Origin: an uncultured Phycisphaerales bacterium
GTDB lineage: Bacteria > Planctomycetota > Phycisphaerae > Tepidisphaerales > Tepidisphaeraceae
Direction: 5' to 3'
Assembly (NCBI GenBank): GCA_963844715.1
Contig: CAWJPJ010000006.1
Location: 896,001-960,000 of the forward strand
Length of the DNA: 64,000 bases
The position numbers and the translations under genes were made by a program. Below the pieces are notes generated by a model. The model saw only the letters and a list, made by a program, of their open reading frames with translations, was not told where the DNA came from and ran no database searches. Positions 120 through 60,096 of this stretch are shown one piece after another (the stretch's first letter is position 1; the number at the start of each line of letters is the position of its first letter).

Positions 120-881
120 ATGATCGACAGGATTGGACGTCGGGTGCGCCTGGGGGCGGTTCTATGGGTCCTGGGGGTGTTGAGCACCACCAGTTGGGGT
201 TGTCTCCGTGAGCTATTGGATGCCAGGGCGATCGAGTGGTCGTCATCGATCATTCAGGCGAAGTTGATCGCGATCGGGTCGCCGCAGGGCACGGGGACGG
301 CCACGAGCCAGCCGGCTTGGACCTATCAGGTTTTTACATTTCAGGTTAGCGATGTCTTCGACGGGCCGGATGAAACCGGGCAGGTTCAGGTGGTTCGATT
401 TATCGGACCTGAAGAGACGCGCAGCGATCCTTGCGGGCAGGAATTGACGCACCAAAGTCTCGGAAAGGCATTCGTGCTGATGCTCCGACTGGAGTCGCAG
501 ACGGGGTGGAGCAAGTCGCACAATGATCGCGACCCGCGAACGAGCCAGGTGCATGCGTTAAAAGCGTTTGTGTTTGTGCATATGGAGTCATCGGATGATC
601 TCGGGTCCGATGGGATCGCGGATTTGAGGCGGCAGATTGCCGATACGCGGGCCGCGGAATCGCAATTCAGCGCCGATGACGCAAAGACACAGGCCGGGGC
701 ACTGGCAAACGCGATGGACGATACCGAGGCGGACGAGGCGGAACAGGCACTGGAAGGAATGGGGTATCGTGCGCAAGGGGCCGTGGAAGACGTAATGAGC
801 GGGGTTGGCGAGACCGGGAAAGAGCGATTGCAGCGGGTTCTAAATGCGATTTCGGTGCCGGCGATCGTTAGGGAGCAGTAG
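120..881 (+). CDS. Hypothetical exported protein
   Basis: 253-aa ORF with basic-then-hydrophobic N-terminus (signal-peptide-like); no family recognised. Confidence 0.6.
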   Translation: MIDRIGRRVRLGAVLWVLGVLSTTSWGCLRELLDARAIEWSSSIIQAKLIAIGSPQGTGTATSQPAWTYQVFTFQVSDVFDGPDETGQVQVVRFIGPEETRSDPCGQELTHQSLGKAFVLMLRLESQTGWSKSHNDRDPRTSQVHALKAFVFVHMESSDDLGSDGIADLRRQIADTRAAESQFSADDAKTQAGALANAMDDTEADEAEQALEGMGYRAQGAVEDVMSGVGETGKERLQRVLNAISVPAIVREQ

Positions 882-887
882 CTCTTT

Positions 888-962
888 TATTTGGCGGGCG
901 TGCGCGGCACGGCGCGGGGGCGATCCACGTTCGAACGGCGTGCTGCGCACGCCCGCTAAATA
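888..962. repeat. REP-like inverted-repeat doublet
   Basis: tatttggcgggcgtgcgcggcacg pairs with cgtgctgcgcacgcccgctaaata (two G-U pairs); the unit is internally palindromic (ggcgtgc-tgc-gcacgcc). Confidence 0.75.
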
Positions 963-1110
963 TGGGGGGCTCGGGGGTTTATTCGAAGTTGTATATCTTG
1001 ATCGTCTCATAACTTTCATTCTTTTGGGGCGTTTTTGCCGAAGTAGAGGTGTAAGTGTCTAAGGGCGCAGGGTCTGCGCCGGTGTGTGCGGTGCCGGAGT
1101 AAAGAACGCC

Positions 1111-1889
1111 ATGGATTTGGCAACGCTGTTTGGATTCCTGATCGCCTGGGGCGTCGTTCTTTTTTCGATGTTCCACGCCTCCGAGGGGGCGATGGGGGCG
1201 TATTTCAAGCCGCCGGAATTGATGTTGGTATTCGGCGGCTCGATGGGCGCGGCATTGCTATCGATGCCGATGCACTCGATTACGGGGATCGTGTCCTACA
1301 TCAAGAAGTGGGCGCTCAATAAAGATCAGCACATCGAGCATTTGATTCATGAGATGGTGCAGTACGCCGAGACGGCCCGGCGCGACGGCGTGCTGGCGCT
1401 GGAGAGCGCGGCGGCGAGGCGCCTGATCCGTTCCTGCGCCGGGGATTGCAGTTGACGATTGACGGGACGGACGCCGAGATCATTGAACGGATTTTGCGCA
1501 TCGAAATCGAATCCATGACCGAGCGCCACAAACACGGGAAACATCTCTTTCACACGCTGGCGAAATTCGGGCCCGGGTTTGGATTGATGGCGACGCTGAT
1601 CGCACAGGTGGCGATGTTCCGAAACCTGGGCGGCGACGCATCGGTCATCGGCAACGCGCTGGCGATCGCCCTGACCGGGACGCTGTACGGCTGTATTCTG
1701 CAAAACCTCGTCGCCGGACCCGTCGCTGAAAAATTGACGTTCCGCAGCCAGGAAGAGGCGTTTTCCAAGGAGATCATGCTCCAGGGGATTTTGAGCATTC
1801 AGGCGGGAAACAATCCGCGCGTGGTGGAGATGCAGCTCATGAGCTTCTTGAGCAGCCGACAGCAAGAAGCGATTCCGAAGGCCGCTTAA
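1111..1889 (+). CDS. motA: Flagellar stator MotA/PomA family protein (one frameshift near 1415, probably sequencing error)
   Basis: MDLATLFG..., ARRDGVLALE, GFGLMATLI, ALTGTLYG, ILSIQAGNNPR; split over ORFs 1084..1455 and 1446..1889. Confidence 0.9.
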
Positions 1890-2681
1890 ATGGCTTCCTG
1901 CAAGTGCAAAAAACCGGCCGAATGTGAAGAATGCCCGGAGTGGATCTTCACGTTTGCGGACCTCGTCATGCTCATGATGGGGTTCTTCGTGATTTTGTGG
2001 GTGCTGAAGCCGGCGCCGGGGAAGAAAGGGGACGGCAATAACAACGAGGACTGGATCAAAGTGGCGGCGGCGATTCGCGAGGCGTTTGGGTATATCCCGA
2101 ATCCGAACAGCCGCGATCCGGTTGATATGCAGATGATCATCAACGGCCTGTCCAAGATCAAAATGGACGGACCGGGAAGCGGGAAGGTTCTCGAGGAGCC
2201 GAAGGGGCCGGAAGGAACCGATCCCGAGGTGACGAGCATTCGGCCGTCGAATCAGGCCACTGAGGGCGGGAAGATGCTCTTCGAGCGCGGAAGCGCGGAA
2301 TTGACGGATAAGACGAAACAGGAATTGGACGAGGTGGCGGACGTGATTCGGGGGCATCGGAATATCGTGATGGTCAAGGGGCATACGTCCCTGGACGATC
2401 TGCCGGACGGCGCTACGGCGGAACAGAAGATGGATCTCTCGCTGCGGCGGGCCCAGGCGGCGGCGGATTATCTGACCGAAAAAGGCGTCGATCCGAGAAT
2501 TTTGCGCGTGCAGGGTTGCTCGATTTTTGAGCCGCTCACGCAGCGGCAATACACGACCGATGCGCAGCGATTGAATCGCCGCGTCGAAGTGGAAGCGACG
2601 GCGACGCTGCTGGATGAAATGCAGAAGAGCGACACGCAGGGGGATTCGGGGTCGTTCGAGTCGAATTCTGCGGATCAGTAG
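1890..2681 (+). CDS. motB: Flagellar stator MotB (OmpA-like peptidoglycan-binding domain)
   Basis: WIFTFADLVMLMMGFFVIL TM motif with the conserved Asp; VKGHT, LSLRRA, NRRVEV. Confidence 0.92.
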   Translation: MASCKCKKPAECEECPEWIFTFADLVMLMMGFFVILWVLKPAPGKKGDGNNNEDWIKVAAAIREAFGYIPNPNSRDPVDMQMIINGLSKIKMDGPGSGKVLEEPKGPEGTDPEVTSIRPSNQATEGGKMLFERGSAELTDKTKQELDEVADVIRGHRNIVMVKGHTSLDDLPDGATAEQKMDLSLRRAQAAADYLTEKGVDPRILRVQGCSIFEPLTQRQYTTDAQRLNRRVEVEATATLLDEMQKSDTQGDSGSFESNSADQ

Positions 2682-2705
2682 GGGGAGCCAACGCGCCGGG
2701 GTAAA

Positions 2706-2736
2706 CGAACGGCGTGCTGCGCACGCCCGCTAAATA
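2706..2736. repeat. Second identical copy of the 31-bp REP-like unit
   Basis: cgaacggcgtgctgcgcacgcccgctaaata is identical to 932-962. Confidence 0.8.
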
Positions 2737-2776
2737 AAGAGCACAATCGTTGCAAGGAAAAAGAGTCCGCGGAGGG

Positions 2777-3598
2777 TTATGGTTTCTGCTTTTTCGGCGG
2801 TTTGGACATCAGGAGGAAAAGCCAGATTACTCCGGCCATGGCTATGGCGACGCTGAGTATTTGGCCCATGGTGAGCCAGCCCCAGGCGATGTATCCGAGT
2901 TGGGGATCGGGCTCGCGGGTGAATTCGACGCAGAAGCGGATCACGCCATAGGCGATGACGAAGGACGCGGCGATTTCGCCGTCGCGGCGGTTTTTACGTT
3001 TTTTGACCAGCCAGACGATCGACAAAAGAAGCGGGCCCTCGAGAAGCGCTTCGTAAAGCTGCGAGGGATGGCGGGGTTGATTGTCGGCGGTGGGGAAGAT
3101 CATGGCCCAGGGGACGTTCGTGGGCCGGCCGAAGAGTTCGCCATTGATGAAATTGGCGATGCGCCCCAGGAATAGGCCGATGGGCGTGACCAGGGCCATG
3201 CAATCGGCGAGATTCAGGAACGAAAGTTTTTCGACTTTGGACCAGATGAAGAGAACGATGATGACACCGGCGAGTCCGCCATGGAAACTCATTCCGCCTT
3301 TTTGGATTTCGAAGGGTTCATACCAGTGTAGGACGGGCCCCATGTTGTGGCGGTAGAAGAACCACCAGCCCGATCGTCCGCCGGCAATGACGCCGAGGGC
3401 GAGCCAGCCGATCAGGTCGCCGAGCTTTTCGGGATTCATGCGCAAGACGCGACGTTTCGCCAATTTGTGCAGGATGAAATAGGCGATGATGAAGCCGGTG
3501 AGATAGGCGACGCCGTACCAGCGGATCTGGATCGGACCCAGATGGACGATCACCGGATCGATCTGCGGATAAGGAATCAGGGCAAGAGGCAGATGCAT
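2777..3598 (-). CDS. lgt: Prolipoprotein diacylglyceryl transferase
   Basis: IRWYG, GGMSFHGG, GRIANFINGELFGR, RHPSQLYE, RFCVEFTREPD; start taken at MHLP (3598). Confidence 0.95.
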   Translation of the reverse strand: MHLPLALIPYPQIDPVIVHLGPIQIRWYGVAYLTGFIIAYFILHKLAKRRVLRMNPEKLGDLIGWLALGVIAGGRSGWWFFYRHNMGPVLHWYEPFEIQKGGMSFHGGLAGVIIVLFIWSKVEKLSFLNLADCMALVTPIGLFLGRIANFINGELFGRPTNVPWAMIFPTADNQPRHPSQLYEALLEGPLLLSIVWLVKKRKNRRDGEIAASFVIAYGVIRFCVEFTREPDPQLGYIAWGWLTMGQILSVAIAMAGVIWLFLLMSKPPKKQKP

Positions 3599-3611
3599 TA
3601 ACTGCGCCGCT

Positions 3612-5024
<1,413 letters not shown>

Positions 5025-24814: not shown

Positions 24815-25934
24815 ATGTCGAGCATGGATCATCTCGTTTCGCGCCGCCGCCGCCGTGGATGCCTCGGGCATCCGCAAGGTGTTCGATCTGGCCGCGAAAA
24901 TGTCCGACCCGATCAACCTTTCGATCGGGCAACCCGATTTCGACGTTCCTGAATTCGCCAAGGACGCCGCGATCGAGGCCATCCGCAAGGGGAACAATCG
25001 ATATACTCAAACTCAGGGAATCGCGCCGCTTCGCGAGCGCCTGCGCAAAGATCTCTCGGCGGAATTTTCCCACGACGTCGGAGAAGTGCTCATCACCAGC
25101 GGCGTCAGCGGCGGCTTGATGCTGGCTCTCCTGGCCACCATCGACCCGGGTGATGAGGCGATTTTCCTCGATCCTTACTTCGTCATGTACAAGCATCTGC
25201 TCACTCTGGCCGGGGGGAAGCCGGTGATCGTGGACAGCTATCCCGATTTTCGCTTTCCCGCGGAGCGCGTCGAAAAGGCGATCACCTCCAAAAGCAAGCT
25301 GTTGATCCTGAACAGCCCCAGCAATCCTACCGGCGTGGCAATGAATCAGCGCGAAATCGACGACGCTGTGCGCATCGCCAAAAAACATAATCTGCTGATC
25401 GTCTCCGATGAGATTTACGAGCCGTTTCTATACGACGCGCCGCGCGGCCTGCCGAGCGCCGGGCATTCGCATGAAAACACTTTGATTCTTCGCGGATTTT
25501 CCAAGAGCCACGGCATGACCGGATGGCGACTCGGCTATGCCGCCGGCCCGTCGGAGATCATTTCGCAGATGACCAAGCTTCAGCAGTACACATTCGTCTG
25601 TGCCCCGGCGCCGTTTCAATACGGAGCACTGAAGGCGTTGGACGTCCCGATGGAGGACGCCGTGGCCGCGTATCGCCAGAAGCGCGATTTGGTCTGCCAT
25701 CGGCTGCATCGGAAATTCGAACTGGTCGTCCCCGAGGGGGCGTTCTACGTCTTTCCGAAGGCCCCGGCCGGGATGACCGGGAGCCAGTTCGTAGCCAAGG
25801 CGATCGATAACAACGTCCTGATCATTCCGGGGAACGTCTTTTCGGAGCGTGATACCCATTTCCGAATCAGCTACGCGACGACGATGGAGAAGTTGGAGGC
25901 GGGCTGCGAAATTCTTTGCAAGCTGGCCGGGTGA
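24815..25934 (+). CDS. Class I/II PLP-dependent aminotransferase (indel near 24845)
   Basis: NLSIGQPDF, NSPSNPTG, SDEIY, GFSKSHGMTGWRLGY. Confidence 0.92.
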
Positions 25935-25982
25935 TCTCGCGGGTGCTCAGAACTGTCAGATTCCGCGATCAATCGGATGGAT

Positions 25983-26012
25983 TTGAAAATCCGTCCGCCA
26001 GCGCGTTAGTAT
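25983..26012 (+). promoter_or_regulatory. Possible sigma70 promoter for the stand-alone tRNA
   Basis: TTGAAA-N18-TAGTAT. Confidence 0.4.
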
Positions 26013-26093
26013 GGCGTCGTGCGGGTCGAATCTACTTGTGAATAGTCCTGCTGACGCCAACCGGCAACGATCGCTCTTCGGGGCGAGGCGGCT

Positions 26094-26178
26094 CCGGCAG
26101 TGGCGGAACTGGCAGACGCTCTGGATTGTCAATCCAGTGATCCACAAGATCGTACGGGTTCGAATCCCGTCTCCCGGA
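26094..26178 (+). tRNA. Atypical class II tRNA: Leu-type body with GTC (Asp) anticodon
   Basis: CCGGCAG TG GCGG AACTGGCAGA CGC T CTGGA TT-GTC-AA TCCAG T GATC CACAA GATC GT ACGGG TTCGAAT CCCGT CTCCCGG A; followed by GC and T6. Confidence 0.8.
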
Positions 26179-26224
26179 GCTTTTTTCGTTTGACTTATGC
26201 CAAATCCGCGTCGATAACATTGTT

Positions 26225-26270
26225 ATCTTGTGGATCACTGGATTGCAGCCCCAGATTGACACCTGGGGCT
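26225..26270. repeat. 21-nt antisense copy of the tRNA plus 8-bp hairpin
   Basis: 26225-26245 is the exact reverse complement of 26130-26150; stem agccccag/ctggggct with loop attgacac. Confidence 0.85.
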
Positions 26271-26311
26271 AATTTATTGGTCACGCCTGCCCTCCGCCGT
26301 CCCCATCAAGC

Positions 26312-29300
26312 TTACTTGTCATCCCCATCGCTCAGCACTCGATCCACGGTCGTCGTAATCGTATTGAAGCTCGTCGCCGAAACTTTCGGCTGCTGAATCG
26401 TTCCGCTGACGTGGATTCTGAGCAGTTCCTGCTTGGCCCCGTAGATCAGCGGCCCGAGGACGGGAAGGCTGACCAGCGTGGGGTTATCCGTCACAAACCA
26501 GAGGCTCACTCGCTTGGCCGCGAAATCGAGCTGGCCGTTGCCGTTCATCGTCATGTCCTTGCTCTTGAGGATGATTTGATCGAAGACGACCTGTTGGCCG
26601 TCGATGGCGTAGCGCGTGGTGGCCTCGGCGAAGGGGCTGCTGAGGGGAAGGGAGAGATTGGTGATCTGGAGCAGGCCTAGGAGGATGGGGAGGTTGTACA
26701 TATTTTCGCCGGTGACGCGGACGTCGCCGTGGCCGCGGCGGCTGGTGGGATCGCCGAGGGTGCCGTCGAGATTGAGCGAGGCGGTCAGCTTGCCGCTGAC
26801 GCCCTGGTTCTCCGGGGCGGCAAGTTGCGCGACATCGGCGTCGCGAAGAACCAGGCCGAAGTCGTACCGGCCGGGCGAGGTGTCCTGATCGTTGTCGGAG
26901 TAGCTGAATTGCCCGCTCCCACTGAGATCGCCGCCGGCGAAATCGCCGCCGAAGCGCGAGATCTCGATGACCGGATCATCCGCCGGTTTGGCGATCATCG
27001 CCGAGAAATTTTGCGCAGGGCGTCCGGCCAGAAGGAGATTGTCGGCGGATAGCTGCATGCCAAGCCGGTGCAGCTTTCCGTCGCGCACCAATCCCGCGAC
27101 ATCCATCGCGCCCGTGGCGCCCGCGATGGGGAGGCCGATGTCCAGATTCGCGCCTAGAAGGCTGACCTTGGCGGCAAAGTCGATGTCCGGGCCGTGCCGC
27201 GTCCGCCGAGCCCGGACGGTAAGCCAACCGTGAGAAGTCCAAGCCGACCGAGCCGGTGAGTTTCAACGTCTTAATAATGTCGGATACCGTTTCAGGTACG
27301 GCGGCGATGGCGTCCGCGTCGAGCGGAACAGGGTCCGCGGTCAATTTCAATACCCATTCCGGATGCTCGCCGAGATCTCCTTCGCCCGTGACGGCAAGCG
27401 CCGATTTGCCGTGATGCGCGGTGATTTGCTTGAGCAACACTTTGGTCGGGGAGACGCTTAAAAGCCCATGCACGTCGTCCATCCGATATGGAAAAATCTG
27501 CGGCTTCACCGAAAGCTGAACGGGGTGAATCTGCAAATCGAGCTTTTCATCCGGGTCGGGTGCGCCGCTGAGCGCGGAGGCATATTCAACAGTCGCGTTT
27601 ATGCTTCCCTGCGGCTGGATCTCGTCCCACGCCTGTTTGGCCGGATCGGGCAACGCGGCGTACAGTGCCGGTTCCAGGGGAACATTTTCCGCGATGGCGG
27701 AAAGCATGATCCGCGGAGGCCGGGCCGACGGTTCGCCTGGCGCGGGAGCGCTCCATGCGATGGAGAGATGTCCCGCGATGTCCCCGGTGCCGCGTTTGGC
27801 GGTCATGTCCGTCAGCACGAAACTCGTCGGGGTGATTCGCATCTGGGCGCTGATCCCGGAAAGCGCGTAGGCATTTCCCAACGGCCAGAGAGCGCCATTG
27901 TGCAAATGGGCGTTGAACAGAAAATCGACGTTGGGATTGGGCGAGTTGTCCTGCACTTTGGAGGGCGTCACATTGCCTTCCACCTCGATCAACCCGGTCG
28001 CTCCCACGGCGACGAGCCAATCGCGCTCGGCGGCGGGCAGAGCGCCTTTTAATTCGTCATCGAGCGGAAGATTTCTGGCAACGACGTGCAAATTCGGCCC
28101 CACCGGCTGGGTCGTCGCCGGTCCGTGATTGGATTTCCAGGTGATCCGGCCATTGATATCGACCGACGCGGTGCCGCGGCGCATGGCGATATTCTTCAGA
28201 TCGACAAAGCGATCGTGAACTTCCAAACGGCCCGTCACGTGACTCATGGGATAAGGGAAGAAGACAAGCGTACCGGCGGCATCCTTGAGATCGACGTCAG
28301 TCGTGAAGTCGAAACGCCGGTGCTGGCCAGGCTGACGCTCGATATGGCAAACGACGTCCGCGCGGAATTGCGGGAGCGCCGCCGGTGCCGTCGGGATCGA
28401 AAAGGCGCAGCGCCCGGTCAACCTGAGGGGGCATTGCCGTGCGCAGAGCCGGCTCGCTGGCGATGTCCTTGGCGCTGACGTCCAGCCATATTCCGGCCAC
28501 TTGATCGAGGGGGCCAATGAATCCGTTGATGGTAACAGTCGAATTCGCGTTGGGGCCGTCTTTCAACCCGTAACCGGTGACGCCGAGCACGCGGATTCCG
28601 TCCATTTTCGTAAGTGGATCGTGCCCGATGAGGATTTCGCCCGTCGCGTCGCAGAGCGGATAGGGAAAGTCGGCGAATTTGAATTGCCCGTCGTGGATAT
28701 CGATCGCGCCGACCACCGCCGGGCGCGCGCCGGCTTCGCCGCGATTGAGCGTGACCGACACGCTGCACGTCCCCTGCGGATGCAGGCGCTCGTAAATCTC
28801 CTGAACCTCCGGCGGCAAAGACCCGGCGTAGGTGGGCGACCAGGCGGGGATTTCCAAATCGTGCCCCGGCATGGACGAGACCGTCAGCTTCGCCGCGGCG
28901 TCGGGGGAATAGCCGTGGATGATGCCGTCGAGATCGAACCAGTTGTTTTCAAGGCGGCCGTTGATGCCGTTGAGGGTCAGATCATCCTGAGTGAACACGA
29001 GCGTCCCGGAAACCTGCCGGAGATGCACCGGTTGCGGTGTGCTCAGGCGGCGCAGGGAATCGATGACATCCTGCGTGATCCATTGTCCGGGCTGGAGAGA
29101 GTCCAACAACGCGTGGAATTTCCGCACGTTTTCATTTTGCCGGCGGCTCATCCATTCCTCGGGGCTGACGGCCAGTTCGACGCTGCTGAGAGAAATTTCC
29201 ATGCGGAAGGAGGGTTGCTCGCCGGGCTTGCCGGGCGTGAAATACATTTCCGGCACGTCGATGCGTCCCTGGAGCTGGTGGCGTTCGCACCATTCTCGCG

Positions 29301-56625: not shown

Positions 56626-56698
56626 GGGCCTGTAGCTCAGCGGCCAGAGTGCTTGCTCGACACGCAAGAGGTCCGTGGTTCGATTCCACGCCGGCCCA
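56626..56698 (+). tRNA. tRNA-Val(GAC)
   Basis: CTTGC TC-GAC-AC GCAAG; cloverleaf; no CCA. Confidence 0.85.
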
Positions 56699-56721
56699 CT
56701 CTCGGTTCGCGCCGCATTCGG

Positions 56722-56959
56722 GCGCCTAGAGCGGCTTGCGGCTCCGCGTAGCGAGCCAGTTGGCCTCGGCTGCAACGGAGGCAAGGATGAACGACGAGGC
56801 GTATCAGAAAATCAGATACGTTGAGGAGCGAAGACGCGGCATCCGTTGCAGCCGTGGACAAATGGCCGCTAGGCGGAGCCGCAATCCGCTCTAAGCTCAA
56901 TCGGCGAGAGCGCCGCGCTTACATCGCGGAGGATGTTGGTTCGAGTCCAGCTTGGCGCA
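56722..56959 (+). pseudogene. tRNA-Val(TAC) interrupted after its 5-prime acceptor strand
   Basis: D, anticodon (CCGCG CT-TAC-AT CGCGG), T arm and TTGGCGCA at 56894-56959; complementary GCGCC lies upstream of the insert. Confidence 0.7.
56727..56893. mobile_element. MITE-like element, 167 bp
   Basis: 21-bp TIRs (20/21) tagagcggcttgcggctccgc; nested internal inverted repeats. Confidence 0.7.
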
Positions 56960-57050
56960 TGGAGATGAAAAATGACGGGAATGCCCGGAAAATCAAGGTG
57001 TTTTCGCGTTGTTGACTGAACGGAAACGCCGCGAGAATCAAGGTTTTTTT

Positions 57051-57122
57051 GCGCTGTTAGCTCAGAGGCAGAGCACCCGGCCGATAACCGGGAGGCCGGA
57101 GAGTCGAGAACTCCACGGCGCA
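57051..57122 (+). tRNA. tRNA-Ile(GAT), degenerate T loop
   Basis: CCCGG CC-GAT-AA CCGGG; acceptor GCGCTGT/ACGGCGC. Confidence 0.75.
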
Positions 57123-57187
57123 CTGAATTGGCGACGCGTCGTTAGCAGGCAAATGGATTCTCGCTGAACCCCGCGCGCTCTTCTCTT

Positions 57188-57228
57188 CCCCCCTCTCCCG
57201 GTACTCCGGGGGAGGGCTGGGGTGGGGG
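57188..57228. repeat. REP-like palindrome
   Basis: ccctctcccgg-tact-ccgggggaggg followed by ctggggtggggg. Confidence 0.55.
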
Positions 57229-57275
57229 CCGGCGCAATTCAGGCAAGATCCGCGGTAATCGGCAGTTCGCCTCGG

Positions 57276-57350
57276 GCACTGGTAGCTCAACTGGATCAGA
57301 GTTCCGGTCTACGAAACCGGAGGTTGAAGGTTCGACCCCTTCCCAGTGCG
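57276..57350 (+). tRNA. tRNA-Arg(ACG)
   Basis: CCGGT CT-ACG-AA ACCGG. Confidence 0.88.
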
Positions 57351-57407
57351 TTATGAACGAAAAATGGTTGTATATATATCTATTGCAATACAACCAGAAG
57401 TGTCCGC

Positions 57408-57479
57408 GCACTCGTAGCTTAAGGGTTAAGCCGCCGGTTCTTACCCGGCCTGATGCAGGTTCGAATCCTGCCGGGTGCA
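57408..57479 (+). tRNA. tRNA-Lys(CTT)
   Basis: GCCGG TT-CTT-AC CCGGC. Confidence 0.85.
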
Positions 57480-57534
57480 TGAAAGGAGAATCGAAAAATG
57501 AGCCCGAGCAGAACCAAACGGTGCAGGTAAATCC

Positions 57535-57609
57535 GCACCGGTAGCTCAATGGAAACAGAGCAACCCTCTTCTAAAGGGTCGGCTGAGGGTTCGAGTCCCT
57601 CCCGGTGCA
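57535..57609 (+). tRNA. tRNA-Arg(TCT)
   Basis: ACCCT CT-TCT-AA AGGGT. Confidence 0.88.
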
Positions 57610-57623
57610 TGTAGATTCCGCGC

Positions 57624-57695
57624 GCACCGGTAGCTCAACGGCAGAGCCGCCGCCTTTTAAGCGGAGTGATGCGGGTTCGAGTCCTGCTCGGTGCA
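57624..57695 (+). tRNA. tRNA-Lys(TTT)
   Basis: CCGC CT-TTT-AA GCGG. Confidence 0.88.
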
Positions 57696-57707
57696 TGAAT
57701 ACACCAC

Positions 57708-57781
57708 GGTTCAGTAGCCCAATCGGCAGAGGCGCCTGACTCAGAATCAGGATAGTGCAGGTTCGAATCCTGCCTGAACTA
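57708..57781 (+). tRNA. tRNA-Leu(CAG) lacking the long variable arm
   Basis: CCTGA CT-CAG-AA TCAGG; variable loop only ATAGT. Confidence 0.85.
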
Positions 57782-57792
57782 TTTCGGCGAAC

Positions 57793-57868
57793 GTTGCGGT
57801 AGCTCAATCGGATTCAGAGCGCGGCCCTCCGAAGGCCGAGGGTGAAGGTTCGATTCCTTCCCGCGACA
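57793..57868 (+). tRNA. tRNA-Arg(CCG)
   Basis: CGGCC CT-CCG-AA GGCCG. Confidence 0.88.
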
Positions 57869-57878
57869 TCGAAAATTC

Positions 57879-57950
57879 GGGCCCGTCGTCTAACGGAAAG
57901 ACTCCTGGCCTGCACCCAGGAAATGAGGGTTCAATTCCCTCCGGCGTCCA
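57879..57950 (+). tRNA. tRNA-Ala(TGC)
   Basis: CCTGG CC-TGC-AC CCAGG; G3-U70; one extra base in the acceptor stem. Confidence 0.8.
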
Positions 57951-58036
57951 TGCGAGCGGCTTCGTCCGCTCCAGAAAGAAGGTGATCGATCATGAGCGAA
58001 AACTCATCGGAAAGTTCATCTAGCGGCTCCACATCC

Positions 58037-58124
58037 GGAGGGTTGGCTGAACGGCTAAGGCACCCGTCTCGAAAACGGGCATTCCCGATGACTGGGATTG
58101 GGGGTTCGAATCCCTCACCCTCCG
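58037..58124 (+). tRNA. tRNA-Ser(CGA)
   Basis: CCCGT CT-CGA-AA ACGGG; long variable arm; G73. Confidence 0.88.
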
Positions 58125-58149
58125 CTGAAGTAAACGAGAACGTGCGCAT

Positions 58150-58239
58150 GGAGGGTTGGCAGAGCGGACGATTGCGCCGCGGTGCTAACGCGGAAGGCGC
58201 CGACTAGGCGTCTCGAAGGTTCGAATCCTTCACCCTCCT
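58150..58239 (+). tRNA. tRNA-Ser(GCT)
   Basis: CCGCG GT-GCT-AA CGCGG; long variable arm. Confidence 0.85.
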
Positions 58240-58254
58240 TTGGAATGTGCGAGA

Positions 58255-58294
58255 GGGAACGGAGCTGGTCCGTTCCCGGAATGTTCTTTGACAA
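58255..58294 (+). promoter_or_regulatory. boxB-boxA-like antitermination signal
   Basis: Hairpin gggaacgga-gctgg-tccgttccc then TGTTCTTTGACAA (compare rrn boxA TGCTCTTTAACA). Confidence 0.55.
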
Positions 58295-58310
58295 TCCGGT
58301 GGCGTAATTC

Positions 58311-58384
58311 GCCGTCATAGCTCAGTCGGGATGAGCGTCCGGTCGTCAACCGGAAGGTCATGGGTTCGATTCCCATTGGCGGCG
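58311..58384 (+). tRNA. tRNA-Asp(GTC)
   Basis: TCCGG TC-GTC-AA CCGGA; class I; G73. Confidence 0.85.
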
Positions 58385-58412
58385 TTGGGCGCGAATTCCG
58401 CGCGCCTTCGAA

Positions 58413-58484
58413 GTGGATTTAGCTCAATCGGTAGAGCAGAGGTCTGAAAATCCTCCCGCCCTGGTTCAATTCCAGGAATCCACA
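58413..58484 (+). tRNA. tRNA-Phe(GAA)
   Basis: GAGGT CT-GAA-AA TCCTC. Confidence 0.85.
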
Positions 58485-58506
58485 TGTCGGCCAAAGGCCG
58501 CGAATC

Positions 58507-58578
58507 GCGTCGGTAGTTCAGCGGGTGGAACACCGCTATGCCAAGGCGGAGGCCCGGGTTCGATCCCCGGCCGGCGCA
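58507..58578 (+). tRNA. tRNA-Gly(GCC)
   Basis: CCGCT AT-GCC-AA GGCGG; A73. Confidence 0.85.
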
Positions 58579-58583
58579 TTCTC

Positions 58584-58655
58584 GCAGTGGTAACTCAATC
58601 GGCAGAGTACCGGTCTTCCAAACCGGCAACGTGGGTTCGAATCCCGCTCACTGCA
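58584..58655 (+). tRNA. tRNA-Gly(TCC)
   Basis: CCGGT CT-TCC-AA ACCGG; A73. Confidence 0.88.
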
Positions 58656-58691
58656 CTAAAGGGACTTTCGACGGTTGAGGATCTTTTTCAA

Positions 58692-58764
58692 GCCGTGGTA
58701 GCTCAACGGGTAGAGCAGTCGTCTCGTAAACGACAGATTGCCGGTTCGATCCCGGCCCGCGGCT
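58692..58764 (+). tRNA. tRNA-Thr(CGT)
   Basis: GTCGT CT-CGT-AA ACGAC. Confidence 0.88.
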
Positions 58765-58777
58765 TTTCAAAAAAATC

Positions 58778-58851
58778 GGGTGCGTAGCTCAGCGGCAAGA
58801 GCAGGGGCCTCATAAGCCTCAGGTCGTTGGTTCAAATCCAACCGTTACCCA
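58778..58851 (+). tRNA. tRNA with CAT anticodon (elongator Met or Ile2)
   Basis: GGGGC CT-CAT-AA GCCTC; one extra base in the acceptor 3-prime strand. Confidence 0.8.
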
Positions 58852-58852
58852 G

Positions 58853-59203
58853 TCAGGGATAGTTCAAACCGGTAGAACGCTCGGCTCTGAACCGGGATGT
58901 TGGAGGTTTCGGAGCAGCTTCATCTGTTTTGTAGCGTCTGCGTTGCGTCCAGATGGGCCGGGCGCTAGGCAGAGCGACGAGTTGGGTCAGGCACAGCGAC
59001 CCGGCGAGGAGCGATAACGACGCGAACGGCCCATCTGGACGCAACCCTCCGGGTCGCCGCCTTTTGCGGCCCATGCGTCGTTACTCCTCCTCGCCGTATC
59101 GTTTCACCTGATACGACTCGTCGTCGCGCCTAGCCTGTGCCGCAAAAGGCGGCGACGCAGACGCTACAAAACAGATGAAACTGCTCTGATCCTTCTCCCT
59201 GAA
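58853..59203 (+). pseudogene. tRNA-Gln(CTG) interrupted in the T loop
   Basis: TCAGGGA...CTCGG CT-CTG-AA CCGGG...GGAGG TT [insert] T CCTTC TCCCTGA A. Confidence 0.8.
58909..59189. mobile_element. MITE-like element, 281 bp
   Basis: 37-bp TIRs (34/37) at 58909-58945 and 59153-59189; several internal inverted repeats. Confidence 0.78.
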
Positions 59204-59204
59204 T

Positions 59205-59277
59205 TGAGCCGTAGTTTAATCGGTAGCAATGCCGGTCTTTGAATCCGGAGATCGTGGTTCAAATCCACGCGGCTCAA
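59205..59277 (+). tRNA. tRNA-Gln(TTG)
   Basis: CCGGT CT-TTG-AA TCCGG; U1-A72. Confidence 0.85.
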
Positions 59278-59283
59278 CTTCTT

Positions 59284-59356
59284 ACCCATGTAGCTCAACC
59301 GGTAGAGCAGGCGGCTGTTAACCGCCGTGGTGGTGGTTCGAATCCATCCGTGGGTG
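59284..59356 (+). tRNA. tRNA-Asn(GTT)
   Basis: GGCGG CT-GTT-AA CCGCC; G73. Confidence 0.88.
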
Positions 59357-59448
59357 TGGGCGGCGCTTCGCGCCACCAGAGCGTAGAAAGTAGAGGCCGA
59401 GAATTTTCTACTTTCCACTTTCCACGAACCACTTTCTCGCGCAGCGCC

Positions 59449-59520
59449 GCTCCTGTCGTCCAACGGTCAGGATACCGGGCCTTCAACCGGAGAATGTGGG
59501 TTCAATTCCCACCGGGAGTG
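59449..59520 (+). tRNA. tRNA-Glu(TTC)
   Basis: CCGGG CC-TTC-AA CCGG (anticodon stem one base short, possible indel). Confidence 0.75.
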
Positions 59521-59536
59521 CATGGAGAAATGATTT

Positions 59537-59610
59537 CAGCGTGTGGCGTAGCTTGGTAACGCACGTGCCTCGGGCGCACGGGATCGAAGGTTCGAATCCT
59601 TCCACGCTGA
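59537..59610 (+). tRNA. tRNA-Pro(CGG)
   Basis: CGTGC CT-CGG-GC GCACG; C1-G72, A73. Confidence 0.88.
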
Positions 59611-59615
59611 CTTTC

Positions 59616-59701
59616 GCGTAGGTCGCATAATTGGCATTGCAGCGGGCCGTAACCCCGCCGACCCTTAGTGGTCCCTGGGGGTTCAAATCCCTCCCTACGC
59701 A
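59616..59701 (+). tRNA. tRNA-Tyr(GTA)
   Basis: GCGGG CC-GTA-AC CCCGC; variable arm. Confidence 0.85.
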
Positions 59702-59827
59702 TTGCCGCAAAGCGGCAATAGAGCGGTGGCGCAGTCGAACAGCCAACGAATGACTCGAGGAAATCGTCCCCGTCAGACGATCCCACCGCGGTCTACTGCT
59801 CCCCTGCTCTACTGTTCAGAATTTTCC

Positions 59828-59900
59828 GCGCCGGAAGTTCCAACGGCGGAACGCCCGCCTCCAAATCGGGAAGCGGCAGGTTCGATCCCTGCTCGGCGCG
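59828..59900 (+). tRNA. tRNA-Trp(CCA)
   Basis: CCCGC CT-CCA-AA TCGGG; G73; A at position 8. Confidence 0.8.
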
Positions 59901-59911
59901 CTGGCAGTTTC

Positions 59912-59983
59912 GAGGATGTGGCCGATTGGACAGGCGCGGGTCTGCAAAGCCCGTCGATGCTGGTTCGAATCCAGTCATCCTCT
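59912..59983 (+). tRNA. tRNA-Cys(GCA)
   Basis: CGGGT CT-GCA-AA GCCCG; U73. Confidence 0.88.
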
Positions 59984-59989
59984 TTTGAT

Positions 59990-60064
59990 GGTGGCCGTAG
60001 CTCAAACGGTCAGAGCACCGGGCTGTGAACCCGGTCGGTGTGAGTTCGAGTCTCACCGGTCACC
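59990..60064 (+). tRNA. tRNA-His(GTG)
   Basis: CCGGG CT-GTG-AA CCCGG; G-1:C73. Confidence 0.88.
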
Positions 60065-60096
60065 CTGTATTGCTGTTGATGGCTGGAAATTTGAGA

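Follow-up and report, generated by a model that had tools for sequence, protein, structure and literature searches.

A hybrid leucine-type transfer RNA with an aspartate anticodon and its putative cognate antisense small RNA

Rare bacterial transfer RNAs (tRNAs) with a long variable arm and an anticodon that does not match their charging identity, the allo-tRNAs, are described as having an acceptor/T-stem geometry of 8/4 or 9/3, serine (or alanine) identity and GUC among their commonest anticodons; their sources are metagenomes and bacteria of the soil, their genes are neighbours of protein toxin-antitoxin genes, and toxin-antitoxin links are suspected by the authors (Mukai et al. 2017, PMC5389517; PMC7609411). 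The words 'antisense' and 'complementary' do not occur in the first of these papers (PMC5389517). In Streptomyces, anticodon-swapped class I proline tRNAs (tRNAProX) are encoded in operons with a dedicated synthetase gene, ProRSx, for purposeful mistranslation (PMC10404621). A 2024 review of bacterial mistranslating tRNAs names no leucine (Leu)-type tRNA(GUC) and does not contain the word 'antisense' (PMC11415595). The locus presented here lies in a stretch of 64,000 nucleotides (nt) from an uncultured Phycisphaerales bacterium (assembly GCA_963844715.1, contig CAWJPJ010000006.1, positions 896,001 to 960,000 of the forward strand), called the window below; all positions are those of the window unless a locus is named. 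It consists of a class II tRNA gene with a Leu-type body and the aspartate (Asp) anticodon GUC, followed by a predicted gene for a small RNA complementary to that tRNA. We consider it reasonably probable that the two form a two-RNA module, in which the Leu-type tRNA(GUC) would be neutralised by its cognate antisense small RNA much as a toxin is by an RNA antitoxin.

A sequence-only reading of this locus had pointed to a perfect reverse complement of part of the tRNA, and an inverted-repeat search recovered it: 26130-26150 and 26225-26245 are complementary over 21 nt (100%) at a spacing of 74 nt. The 21-mer is found at these two sites only, in the window as well as in the full 4.55-Mb assembly, and two matches were obtained in 0/100 dinucleotide shuffles. 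The adjacent hairpin displaying a complement of the anticodon loop, GAC included, was borne out as well (26247-26270): 26247-26254 and 26263-26270 form a stem of 8 bp around the 8-nt loop ATTGACAC, and 26254-26261 (GATTGACA) is complementary over 8 nt (100%) to 26127-26134 (TGTCAATC) in the anticodon loop. Contigs of three other public DNA runs are 100% identical to the window over 25935-26228, 26013-26185 and 26157-26307; each repeat arm is covered separately, no single record includes both, and the run with the best coverage may be that of the source sample. Because each arm is assembled independently in its own context, the repeat is unlikely to be a fold-back artefact of assembly.

Related loci were collected with two patterns. 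A loose one matched at 46 places when run over the class (401 genomes); apart from the window, just two of these are class II tRNAs with GTC. Both share the layout behind the tRNA: a T-run; TTGACA or TTGACT, 17 nt and GATAAT; after a few further bases, a reverse complement of the own variable arm; and a G+C-rich terminator hairpin, the loop of which contains the complement of the own anticodon loop. The stricter pattern (Leu-type D arm, 6 nt and YTGTCA) yielded 45 loci in 185,579 species genomes and 7 viral-contig loci, and 80 of 102 metagenome stretches were used. With the window, 133 loci were available; removal of 18 (T loop unparsable; truncated or broken), of 8 duplicates and of 5 with less than 150 nt downstream left 102 unique loci.

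For each of these, the core of the tRNA, from position 26 to the T stem, was compared with the first 230 nt downstream of the gene, and the longest exact antisense match on the same strand was recorded. Matches of at least 10 nt were present in 45/102 loci and of at least 12 nt in 36/102, compared with 6/102 for a same-sense repeat of at least 10 nt downstream and with 3 loci for an antisense match of at least 10 nt upstream. They begin at about +44 to +133, most of them at +44 to +110, and the 21 nt of the window are the longest exact match among the 102 loci. Exact matching undercounts: L175 and L143 have unmistakable partners, though with bulges or mismatches. Six further loci have the partner on the opposite strand, convergent with the tRNA (L076, L172, L149 and L095; also L160 and L161). 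The first four were inspected closely and contain the reversed gene, that is, the antisense stretch and then a terminator hairpin on the opposite strand, with a promoter-like signal ahead of the antisense in L172, L149 and L095; TGACA lies in the terminator hairpin of L076 and L172, and in L149 and L095 within the antisense stretch, which there spans the anticodon loop. (The terminator loop of L076, when read on the tRNA strand, mimics the anticodon loop itself.) Because complementarity at the RNA level is kept in either gene orientation, pairing in trans is favoured, and a DNA inversion site and an obligatory read-through trailer are disfavoured.

The sequence-only reading had proposed to look for co-variation of tRNA and trailer in homologues, and it was found: across dozens of unrelated bacteria, compensating changes preserve the complementarity. 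In the variable-arm subtype, to which the window belongs (12 loci: window, L063, L066, L070, L074, L077, L083, L093, L100, L130, L151, L166), 12 different variable arms occur, each with its own complement in the same locus. With the variable arm only, a match of at least 12 nt was seen in 8/102 own-locus comparisons and 0/10,302 cross-locus comparisons; for at least 10 nt the counts were 12/102 and 28/10,302. The anticodon-arm subtype, mostly from Gemmatimonadota-labelled records, has an antisense that spans the 5' stem strand and the loop; complementarity at 14 or more of 17 positions was present in 29/102 loci (same-sense control, 2/102), with 14 different stems, and at 15 or more of 17 in 18 loci (control, 0). 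An alignment of 23 anticodon-arm loci was made with MAFFT, unfitted to any structure. Of the 21 pairs of the intermolecular helix, 12 are changed on both sides. Over all 26 pairs, which include a 5-pair T-stem control helix, 87.8% of cells are paired, a percentage inflated by the choice of the 23 loci for their antisense match, though the diversity of pair types is not; with the partner slid by 1-3 columns the value is 37.5-43.4%. The covariation score is 0.486 (0.165 in shuffled alignments, 0/500 of which reach it; 0.07-0.10 when slid). Co-variation with the small RNA extends to loop positions 32 and 38, with CG 17 / UA 6 as the pair types at one and AU 11 / CG 8 / GC 2 at the other.

By duplex energies restricted to the core, the own downstream region is the best partner of the own tRNA in 22/102 loci (about 1 expected) and is within the best 5% of cross pairs in 37/102 (opposite-strand control, 2/102). 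Full-length RNAduplex energies were uninformative in the 12-locus set, as long GC-rich RNAs pair with anything, and the core-restricted test was used instead. The closest related module, L175, has 87% identity in the tRNA and is similar to the window from about 26000 to 26285, with a GATATT -10 box, a T5 run and a perfect acceptor stem; because the 21 bp are perfect in the window although the two modules have diverged, pairing has been maintained in the window's lineage. Taken over the loci, comparative analysis establishes a conserved pair, namely a hybrid tRNA and the predicted gene of a cognate antisense RNA.

Transcription signals were scored with a promoter rule (-35 box with at least 4/6 matches, spacer of 16-18 nt, A2 and T6 in the -10 box). 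A sigma-70-like promoter ends 3-12 nt (mostly 5-7) ahead of the antisense in 36/45 same-strand loci, as against 3/225 shifted control positions; because the promoter ends just before it, the antisense would be the extreme 5' end of the RNA. A T-run follows the tRNA in 12/12 loci of the variable-arm subtype and in none of the anticodon-arm subtype. In the 12-locus subtype the small RNAs are predicted to measure 56-98 nt and to consist of a 5' tail that is largely unpaired, 0-2 hairpins in the middle and a terminator hairpin with T run, its stem often GACGCCGC / GCGGCGTC. TGACA is present in the small RNA of 12/12 of these loci, in agreement with the GTC anticodon that the sequence-only reading had assigned; it is at the terminator tip in 11/12 (in L077 in an upstream loop), where the complementarity to the own anticodon loop extends over 5-9 nt. 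The window terminator (26247-26278) has the make-up of an intrinsic terminator, with 8 pairs, 6 of them G-C, and the tail AATTTATTGG. Upstream of it, TTGACT-17-GATAAC is homologous in position to the TTGACW-17-GATAAT of relatives. Own promoter, own terminator and compensating changes, which characterise trans-encoded antisense small RNAs, are found in the family; the promoter of the window is imperfect. The palindrome that the sequence-only reading had noted (26213-26227) is present in the sequence: it is a perfect 7+1+7 palindrome that reaches across the -10 box and the start predicted for the small RNA, has no equivalent in related loci and may be a chance feature or a local operator. The TTGACA of the terminator loop was considered as a -35 box and rejected, there being no -10-like hexamer 16-18 nt downstream. 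The features are listed in Table 1.

Table 1 Features of the tRNA and small RNA module and of the genes on either side (window positions; predicted features are named as such).
Feature	Position	Strand	Basis
Candidate (predicted) tRNA promoter, TTGAAA-18 nt-TAGTAT	25983..26012	+	Promoter scan
tRNA 5' leader, ~80 nt; conserved with closest relative L175 only	26013..26093	+	Window/L175 alignment
Class II leucine-type tRNA; anticodon GUC at 26128-26130, A73 at 26178	26094..26178	+	Rfam tRNA, ARAGORN
Antisense target: C36-A38, 3' strand of anticodon stem and most of variable arm	26130..26150	+	Inverted-repeat search
T6 run straight after extended acceptor helix; likely end of tRNA transcript	26181..26186	+	Sequence
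Promoter-like element of small RNA: -35 TTGACT (26190-26195), 17-nt spacer, -10 GATAAC (26213-26218)	26190..26218	+	Sequence, relatives
Palindrome GATAACA-T-TGTTATC	26213..26227	.	Sequence
5' antisense tail of predicted small RNA, 21 nt, perfect complement of 26130-26150	26225..26245	+	Inverted-repeat search
Terminator hairpin: 8-bp stem, loop ATTGACAC (26255-26262), GAC at 26258-26260	26247..26270	+	Terminator scan, folding
U-rich tail AATTTATT; predicted 3' end of ~55-nt small RNA	26271..26278	+	Terminator scan
Class I/II aminotransferase	24855-25934		Pfam E = 1e-63
Convergent gene without Pfam family	26312-27106

The tRNA matches the Rfam tRNA model (RF00005) over model positions 1-71 with 51 bits (gathering score 29), and ARAGORN places the anticodon GTC within the loop TTGTCAA. 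Its body is that of a tRNA-Leu: 3-bp D stem, Leu-type D loop, long variable arm (16 nt) and A73. The D arm TGGCGGAACTGGCAGACGC aligns with the five Leu tRNAs of the own genome, and the closest tRNAs of that genome are four Leu tRNAs (identity 0.68-0.75). The anticodon is GTC and not one of leucine (NAG or YAA). A tRNA-Asp would be class I with a short variable loop and G73, and the ordinary tRNA-Asp genes of the genome are 75-76 nt long; neither the 16-nt variable arm nor A73 agrees with this. Nor is the 12-bp acceptor domain (8/4 or 9/3) with serine identity of the allo-tRNAs present, the acceptor having 7 pairs and the T stem 5 (Rfam alignment, ARAGORN). All five Leu isoacceptors are found in the own genome, with two ordinary tRNA-Asp (a 75-nt tRNA-Asp(GTC) and another in a tRNA array), which makes the present tRNA an extra, hybrid one. 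It encodes no CCA, as is usual for the genome (CCA near the 3' end in 14/74 tRNAs). Among the 102 loci A73 is kept in 87, and twelve related loci score 42-59 bits with the Rfam tRNA model.

Bacterial leucyl-tRNA synthetase (LeuRS) ignores the anticodon of its tRNA, and aspartyl-tRNA synthetase (AspRS) recognises it. Leucylation is expected, because A73, the canonical body and the LeuRS-type architecture are kept and LeuRS ignores the anticodon; the tRNA would probably be leucine-charged and decode GAC and GAU as Leu. Upstream, the final GCT of the leader (26091-26093) pairs with AGC (26178-26180), which extends the acceptor helix to 10 pairs (inverted repeat 26091-26100 / 26171-26180, 90%). 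In the alignment of L175 with the window, similarity starts at the -10 box of the tRNA promoter. Within the leader, CTTGTGA (26034-26040) could pair with 6-7 nt in the variable arm, and the leader of L175 has CTTGTGAG, complementary to 8 nt of its own, different variable arm; these could be a second, cis antisense element, with lengths that are within the background range. A hairpin CGGATGGATTT-GAAA-ATCCGTCCG at 25970-25995, right after the stop codon of the aminotransferase gene, may serve as the terminator of that gene; its loop and 5' arm are overlapped by TTGAAA, the candidate -35 box of the tRNA promoter. That this hairpin and GGGTCGAATC (26023-26032) are remains of a decayed tRNA was considered and dismissed: neither ARAGORN nor Rfam finds a tRNA there, and the stretch is the candidate tRNA promoter and leader.

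Folded alone, the small RNA of the window has a free 5' tail and a hairpin (-18.9 kcal/mol, z = -2.4). Cofolding of tRNA and small RNA gives -69.2 kcal/mol through the 21-bp helix, compared with -46.6 kcal/mol folded apart (tRNA, -27.3; small RNA, -19.3). The tail, which pairs from C36 to the variable arm, and the loop, which pairs with U33 to C40, compete for C36-C40, and because of this competition a two-step path is proposed, a loop-loop kiss and then strand invasion. The module would work as follows. The first gene would give a tRNA with the body and discriminator of tRNA-Leu and the Asp anticodon GUC, which would insert Leu at Asp codons; the second would give a small RNA of ~55 nt with a single-stranded 5' tail antisense to the variable arm and the 3' side of the anticodon stem. 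The loop of its terminator hairpin, which shows the codon-side complement of the anticodon loop, would first make a loop-loop 'kiss' on the anticodon; the tail would then invade and form a long duplex (21 bp here), with the anticodon and variable arms unfolded. Decoding would be blocked by this duplex, which may also expose the tRNA to a double-strand RNase. The small RNA would be a dedicated trans-acting 'anti-tRNA' that restrains a potentially proteome-poisoning tRNA in the way of an RNA antitoxin, a logic that couples a stable, harmful RNA to a small antisense RNA. That both RNAs are transcribed, that the tRNA is leucylated and mistranslates or is toxic, and what follows from pairing are inferred.

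Three explanations had been offered by the sequence-only reading for the complementary stretch: a cis trailer that sequesters the tRNA on read-through like an RNA antitoxin, inverted repeats used by a recombinase as a switch, and a duplication scar. The core of the trailer explanation, an antisense RNA with a codon hairpin and an antitoxin-like role, is strongly supported by the compensating changes in homologues; a read-through origin is in general not, though the window copy, with its imperfect -10 box, may yet be expressed by read-through. Were the antisense made only by read-through past the T-run, it would fold back on the same molecule, and read-through precursors would be dead on arrival. 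Such an RNA (26094-26280) does fold with the 21-bp helix at -71.5 kcal/mol (z = -4.8; 0/200 shuffles as good), the -10 GATAAC of the window fails the promoter rule, and the anticodon-arm subtype lacks the T-run behind the tRNA; yet the promoters ahead of the antisense in 36/45 loci, the T-run in all 12 loci of the window's subtype and the 6 opposite-strand loci, in which read-through would yield a sense copy, speak for a separate transcript, and we regard a purely cis-acting trailer as unlikely. A feature of the DNA, either the repeats of a site-specific invertase or a decaying partial duplication of the tRNA gene, is barely credible. The arms are perfect inverted repeats in DNA, and in one run the contigs built from short reads are interrupted between 26109 and 26235. 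However, neither recombinase, integrase nor transposase families were found among the 26 open reading frames (ORFs) scanned from 13.6 to 39.2 kb (~12 kb on each side), which tells against the recombinase switch, and in the 6 opposite-strand loci the repeat is direct with RNA complementarity still kept. Contigs of 4 DNA runs (2 studies) contain no joints, variants or inverted form, which is weak evidence, as contigs drop rare variants and none spans both arms. The scar was rejected on the co-variation and on the conserved promoter and terminator, to which the conserved codon loop may be added; a scar would not co-vary over 12 different variable arms.

Two further explanations accept both RNAs and assign them other roles. 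Tuned, beneficial conditional mistranslation, or a Leu- or Asp-charged tRNA for extra-ribosomal use, with the small RNA as an ordinary regulator of the level of free tRNA, would produce pairing evidence identical to that of the antitoxin-like explanation, and dedicated mistranslating tRNAs are known in bacteria (tRNAProX with ProRSx, PMC10404621; others in the review PMC11415595). We hold it to be rather improbable: the module has a patchy distribution that suggests horizontal transfer, same-genus genomes do not have it at the syntenic site, and no conserved enzyme partner is found, whereas tRNAProX comes with ProRSx. The roles could also be reversed, so that the small RNA is the active partner, its GAC loop kisses the ordinary tRNA-Asp, and the Leu-like tRNA(GUC) is a high-affinity decoy or antitoxin through pairing of its variable arm. 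Between the loop UUGACA and the loop CUGUCGA of the native tRNA-Asp six pairs, including one G.U, are possible, as worked out by hand, and the extra pairing is specific to the partner tRNA; but 5-6 bp of contact would probably not suffice to titrate a tRNA that is abundant, modified and engaged with ribosomes, a decoy needs neither A73 (kept in 87/102 loci) nor a canonical tRNA body (42-59 bits), and the antisense of the anticodon-arm subtype covers the partner's own stem, which makes it specific for the partner and not for tRNA-Asp. A reversal of roles is accordingly given little credence.

Several points weigh against the antitoxin-like explanation as well. A look for 25800-26500 among RNA runs found none that contains the locus, and both transcripts, their ends and how stable each is relative to the other are predictions. 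By the criteria used, 51/102 Leu-like tRNA(GUC) loci have no partner, those of all cultured isolates included; because about half of the loci show none, a partner is not obligatory for carrying such a tRNA. The search pattern fixed the D arm and the anticodon, and the limits of the family may be wider; the selection of the 23 aligned loci has been mentioned. The 20 internal mismatches comprise 10 of G:U type, 4 of A:C type and 6 others, so that wobble gives weak support for RNA-level pairing. The window copy has weaknesses of its own: the -10 GATAAC has C at position 6 and does not satisfy the strict promoter rule (one of 9/45 failing loci), relatives have T5-T8 runs where its terminator ends in the weaker tail AATTTATT, and acceptor pair 5:68 is a C.C mismatch, where L175 has a perfect acceptor stem; this copy may be weakened or partly decayed. 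Leucylation is deduced from identity elements only, and partial charging with Asp by AspRS is possible, which would give a harmless tRNA.

The module measures ~285 nt (roughly 26000-26285) and is an insertion between two convergent housekeeping-type genes, both conserved and adjacent in relatives. In the same-genus genome G001 only 33 nt, without a tRNA, separate the alignments of the flanking genes; the syntenic site of same-genus genomes does not contain the module. Other inserts, unrelated and without tRNA, occupy the same intergenic site in genomes G002 (~1.3 kb; L029, about 1155-2434) and G019 (~2.9 kb, with an ORF of 901 amino acids; L030, about 843-3747). The site between the aminotransferase gene and the convergent gene seems to be a hotspot for acquired DNA. 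Besides the tRNA, no Rfam match was obtained at E up to 1 in 25500-27000, nor at E up to 0.1 in the 12 related loci.

Elsewhere in the window, an array of 24 tRNA genes in 3.4 kb (56626-60065, +) includes a 74-nt 'tRNA-Leu(CAG)' without the long variable arm typical of bacterial Leu tRNAs, one tRNA with an undetermined anticodon (59449-59521) and second copies of many isoacceptors that the genome also has elsewhere. The array resembles the long tRNA arrays reported in PMC8421152. Outside the window, ARAGORN reports a 93-nt 'tRNA-Gly(GCC)' (genome G000, contig C8:348543-348635), which is un-tRNA-like, has no GTTC T loop and is probably a false positive.

Among the named genome records, a partner was found in 9/9 labelled Planctomycetota (Phycisphaerae, Planctomycetaceae, Pirellulales etc.; 8 on the same strand, L076 on the opposite strand) and in 5/5 Gemmatimonadales- or Gemmatimonadaceae-labelled records, though L065 has only 13/17 positions; most records of other phyla have none by the criteria used, the cultured Noviluteimonas lactosilytica, Corallococcus terminator and Lysinibacillus sp. 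among them. Leu-type tRNA(GUC) genes without partner (L067, L096, L098 [= viral locus L110], L108, L113, L114) occur in these cultured isolates and in viral contigs; in L067, three TGTCAAC / GTTGACA copies lie immediately behind the tRNA. Of the 7 viral-contig loci 4 were parsable, and none of them has an antisense match of at least 10 nt. No protein neighbour is conserved, the largest cluster of neighbouring proteins comprising 4/107 loci. A search with 26094-26285 (blastn, distant mode) gave no match in the phage collection; in the plasmid collection 5 records matched, all through ordinary tRNA stretches. Within the phylum (301 genomes), a D arm of Leu type is combined with a non-A middle base of the anticodon in 2 cases, both GTC, which are too few to conclude that GUC is exclusive.

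This patchy, cross-phylum, protein-free and insertion-like distribution fits a selfish or defence cassette, and a small, patchy and autonomous module is consistent with a toxin-antitoxin system, without proving one. A bolder proposal, which we put forward tentatively and think more doubtful than probable, is a new type of toxin-antitoxin or abortive-infection module made of RNA only. Its toxin would be a very stable, Leu-charged tRNA that misreads Asp codons and thereby corrupts all proteins in synthesis, and its antitoxin an antisense RNA of short life that binds this tRNA at the anticodon loop and variable arm. Once transcription ceases, because the element is lost, a phage takes over or stress sets in, the small RNA would be the first to decay and the freed tRNA would poison translation; a protein-free cassette of ~300 nt would spread between phyla.

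No description of a tRNA with a cognate antisense small RNA, or of a Leu-type tRNA(GUC), was found in the open-access and bioRxiv literature that was searched, and we rate the module as a new kind of system with a putative function. If the explanation by an antitoxin-like small RNA is true, the tRNA itself becomes a new target class for antisense RNA control in bacteria, and the module is the first natural case found of a dedicated RNA pairing with the anticodon and variable arm of a tRNA. It would also give a testable answer to the question raised by allo-tRNAs and tRNAProX, how cells carry tRNA genes with an anticodon at odds with the charging identity without ruin of the proteome. The module may define a protein-free toxin-antitoxin or defence module, and for engineering of the genetic code it would offer a compact programmable tRNA / anti-tRNA switch with the variable arm as the address, 12 natural addresses having been seen.

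Among known systems, the nearest in the tRNA itself are those introduced at the outset. Like allo-tRNAs, the window tRNA has a long variable arm, a mismatch of anticodon and identity and the anticodon GUC; unlike them, it has a canonical 7/5 cloverleaf, a Leu-type D arm, A73 and an RNA partner. With tRNAProX it shares a swapped anticodon in a genome-encoded tRNA; tRNAProX has no antisense RNA, and the window module no protein partner. Nematode nev-tRNAs are class II and Leu-charged with Gly or Ile anticodons, and they resemble the window tRNA in their leucine-type class II body and foreign anticodon; they differ in being eukaryotic, in their anticodons and in having no antisense partner.

The nearest in the mode of control are RNA regulators. 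T-boxes are cis leaders of messenger RNAs (mRNAs), the specifier loop of which pairs with the anticodon and in which charging is sensed at the 3' end of the tRNA. The module has in common with them an RNA loop that shows a codon to a tRNA anticodon; in contrast, it has no downstream gene, the next gene being convergent, its second contact is the variable arm, and no Rfam T-box match was obtained (E up to 1, 25500-27000). In the type VIII systems CreT-CreA and SdsR-RyeA both partners are RNAs; CreT is mRNA-like and ties up a rare tRNA, and CreA acts through Cascade on a promoter. CreT-CreA and the module are alike as RNA/RNA pairs with involvement of a tRNA; in the module the tRNA itself would be the toxin, and the antitoxin would pair with it directly. 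The targets of type I toxin-antitoxin and kissing-loop control (hok/sok, CopA/CopT, RNAI/RNAII) are mRNAs or replication primers, and their antisense RNAs are as a rule encoded opposite to them. Common to these and to the module would be an antisense RNA that is small, presumably labile and made from a promoter of its own, the neutralisation of a stable toxic RNA, and a loop contact that leads to a long duplex, whereas the target in the module would be a mature-type tRNA, and its antisense gene is adjacent, on either strand, and so would act in trans.

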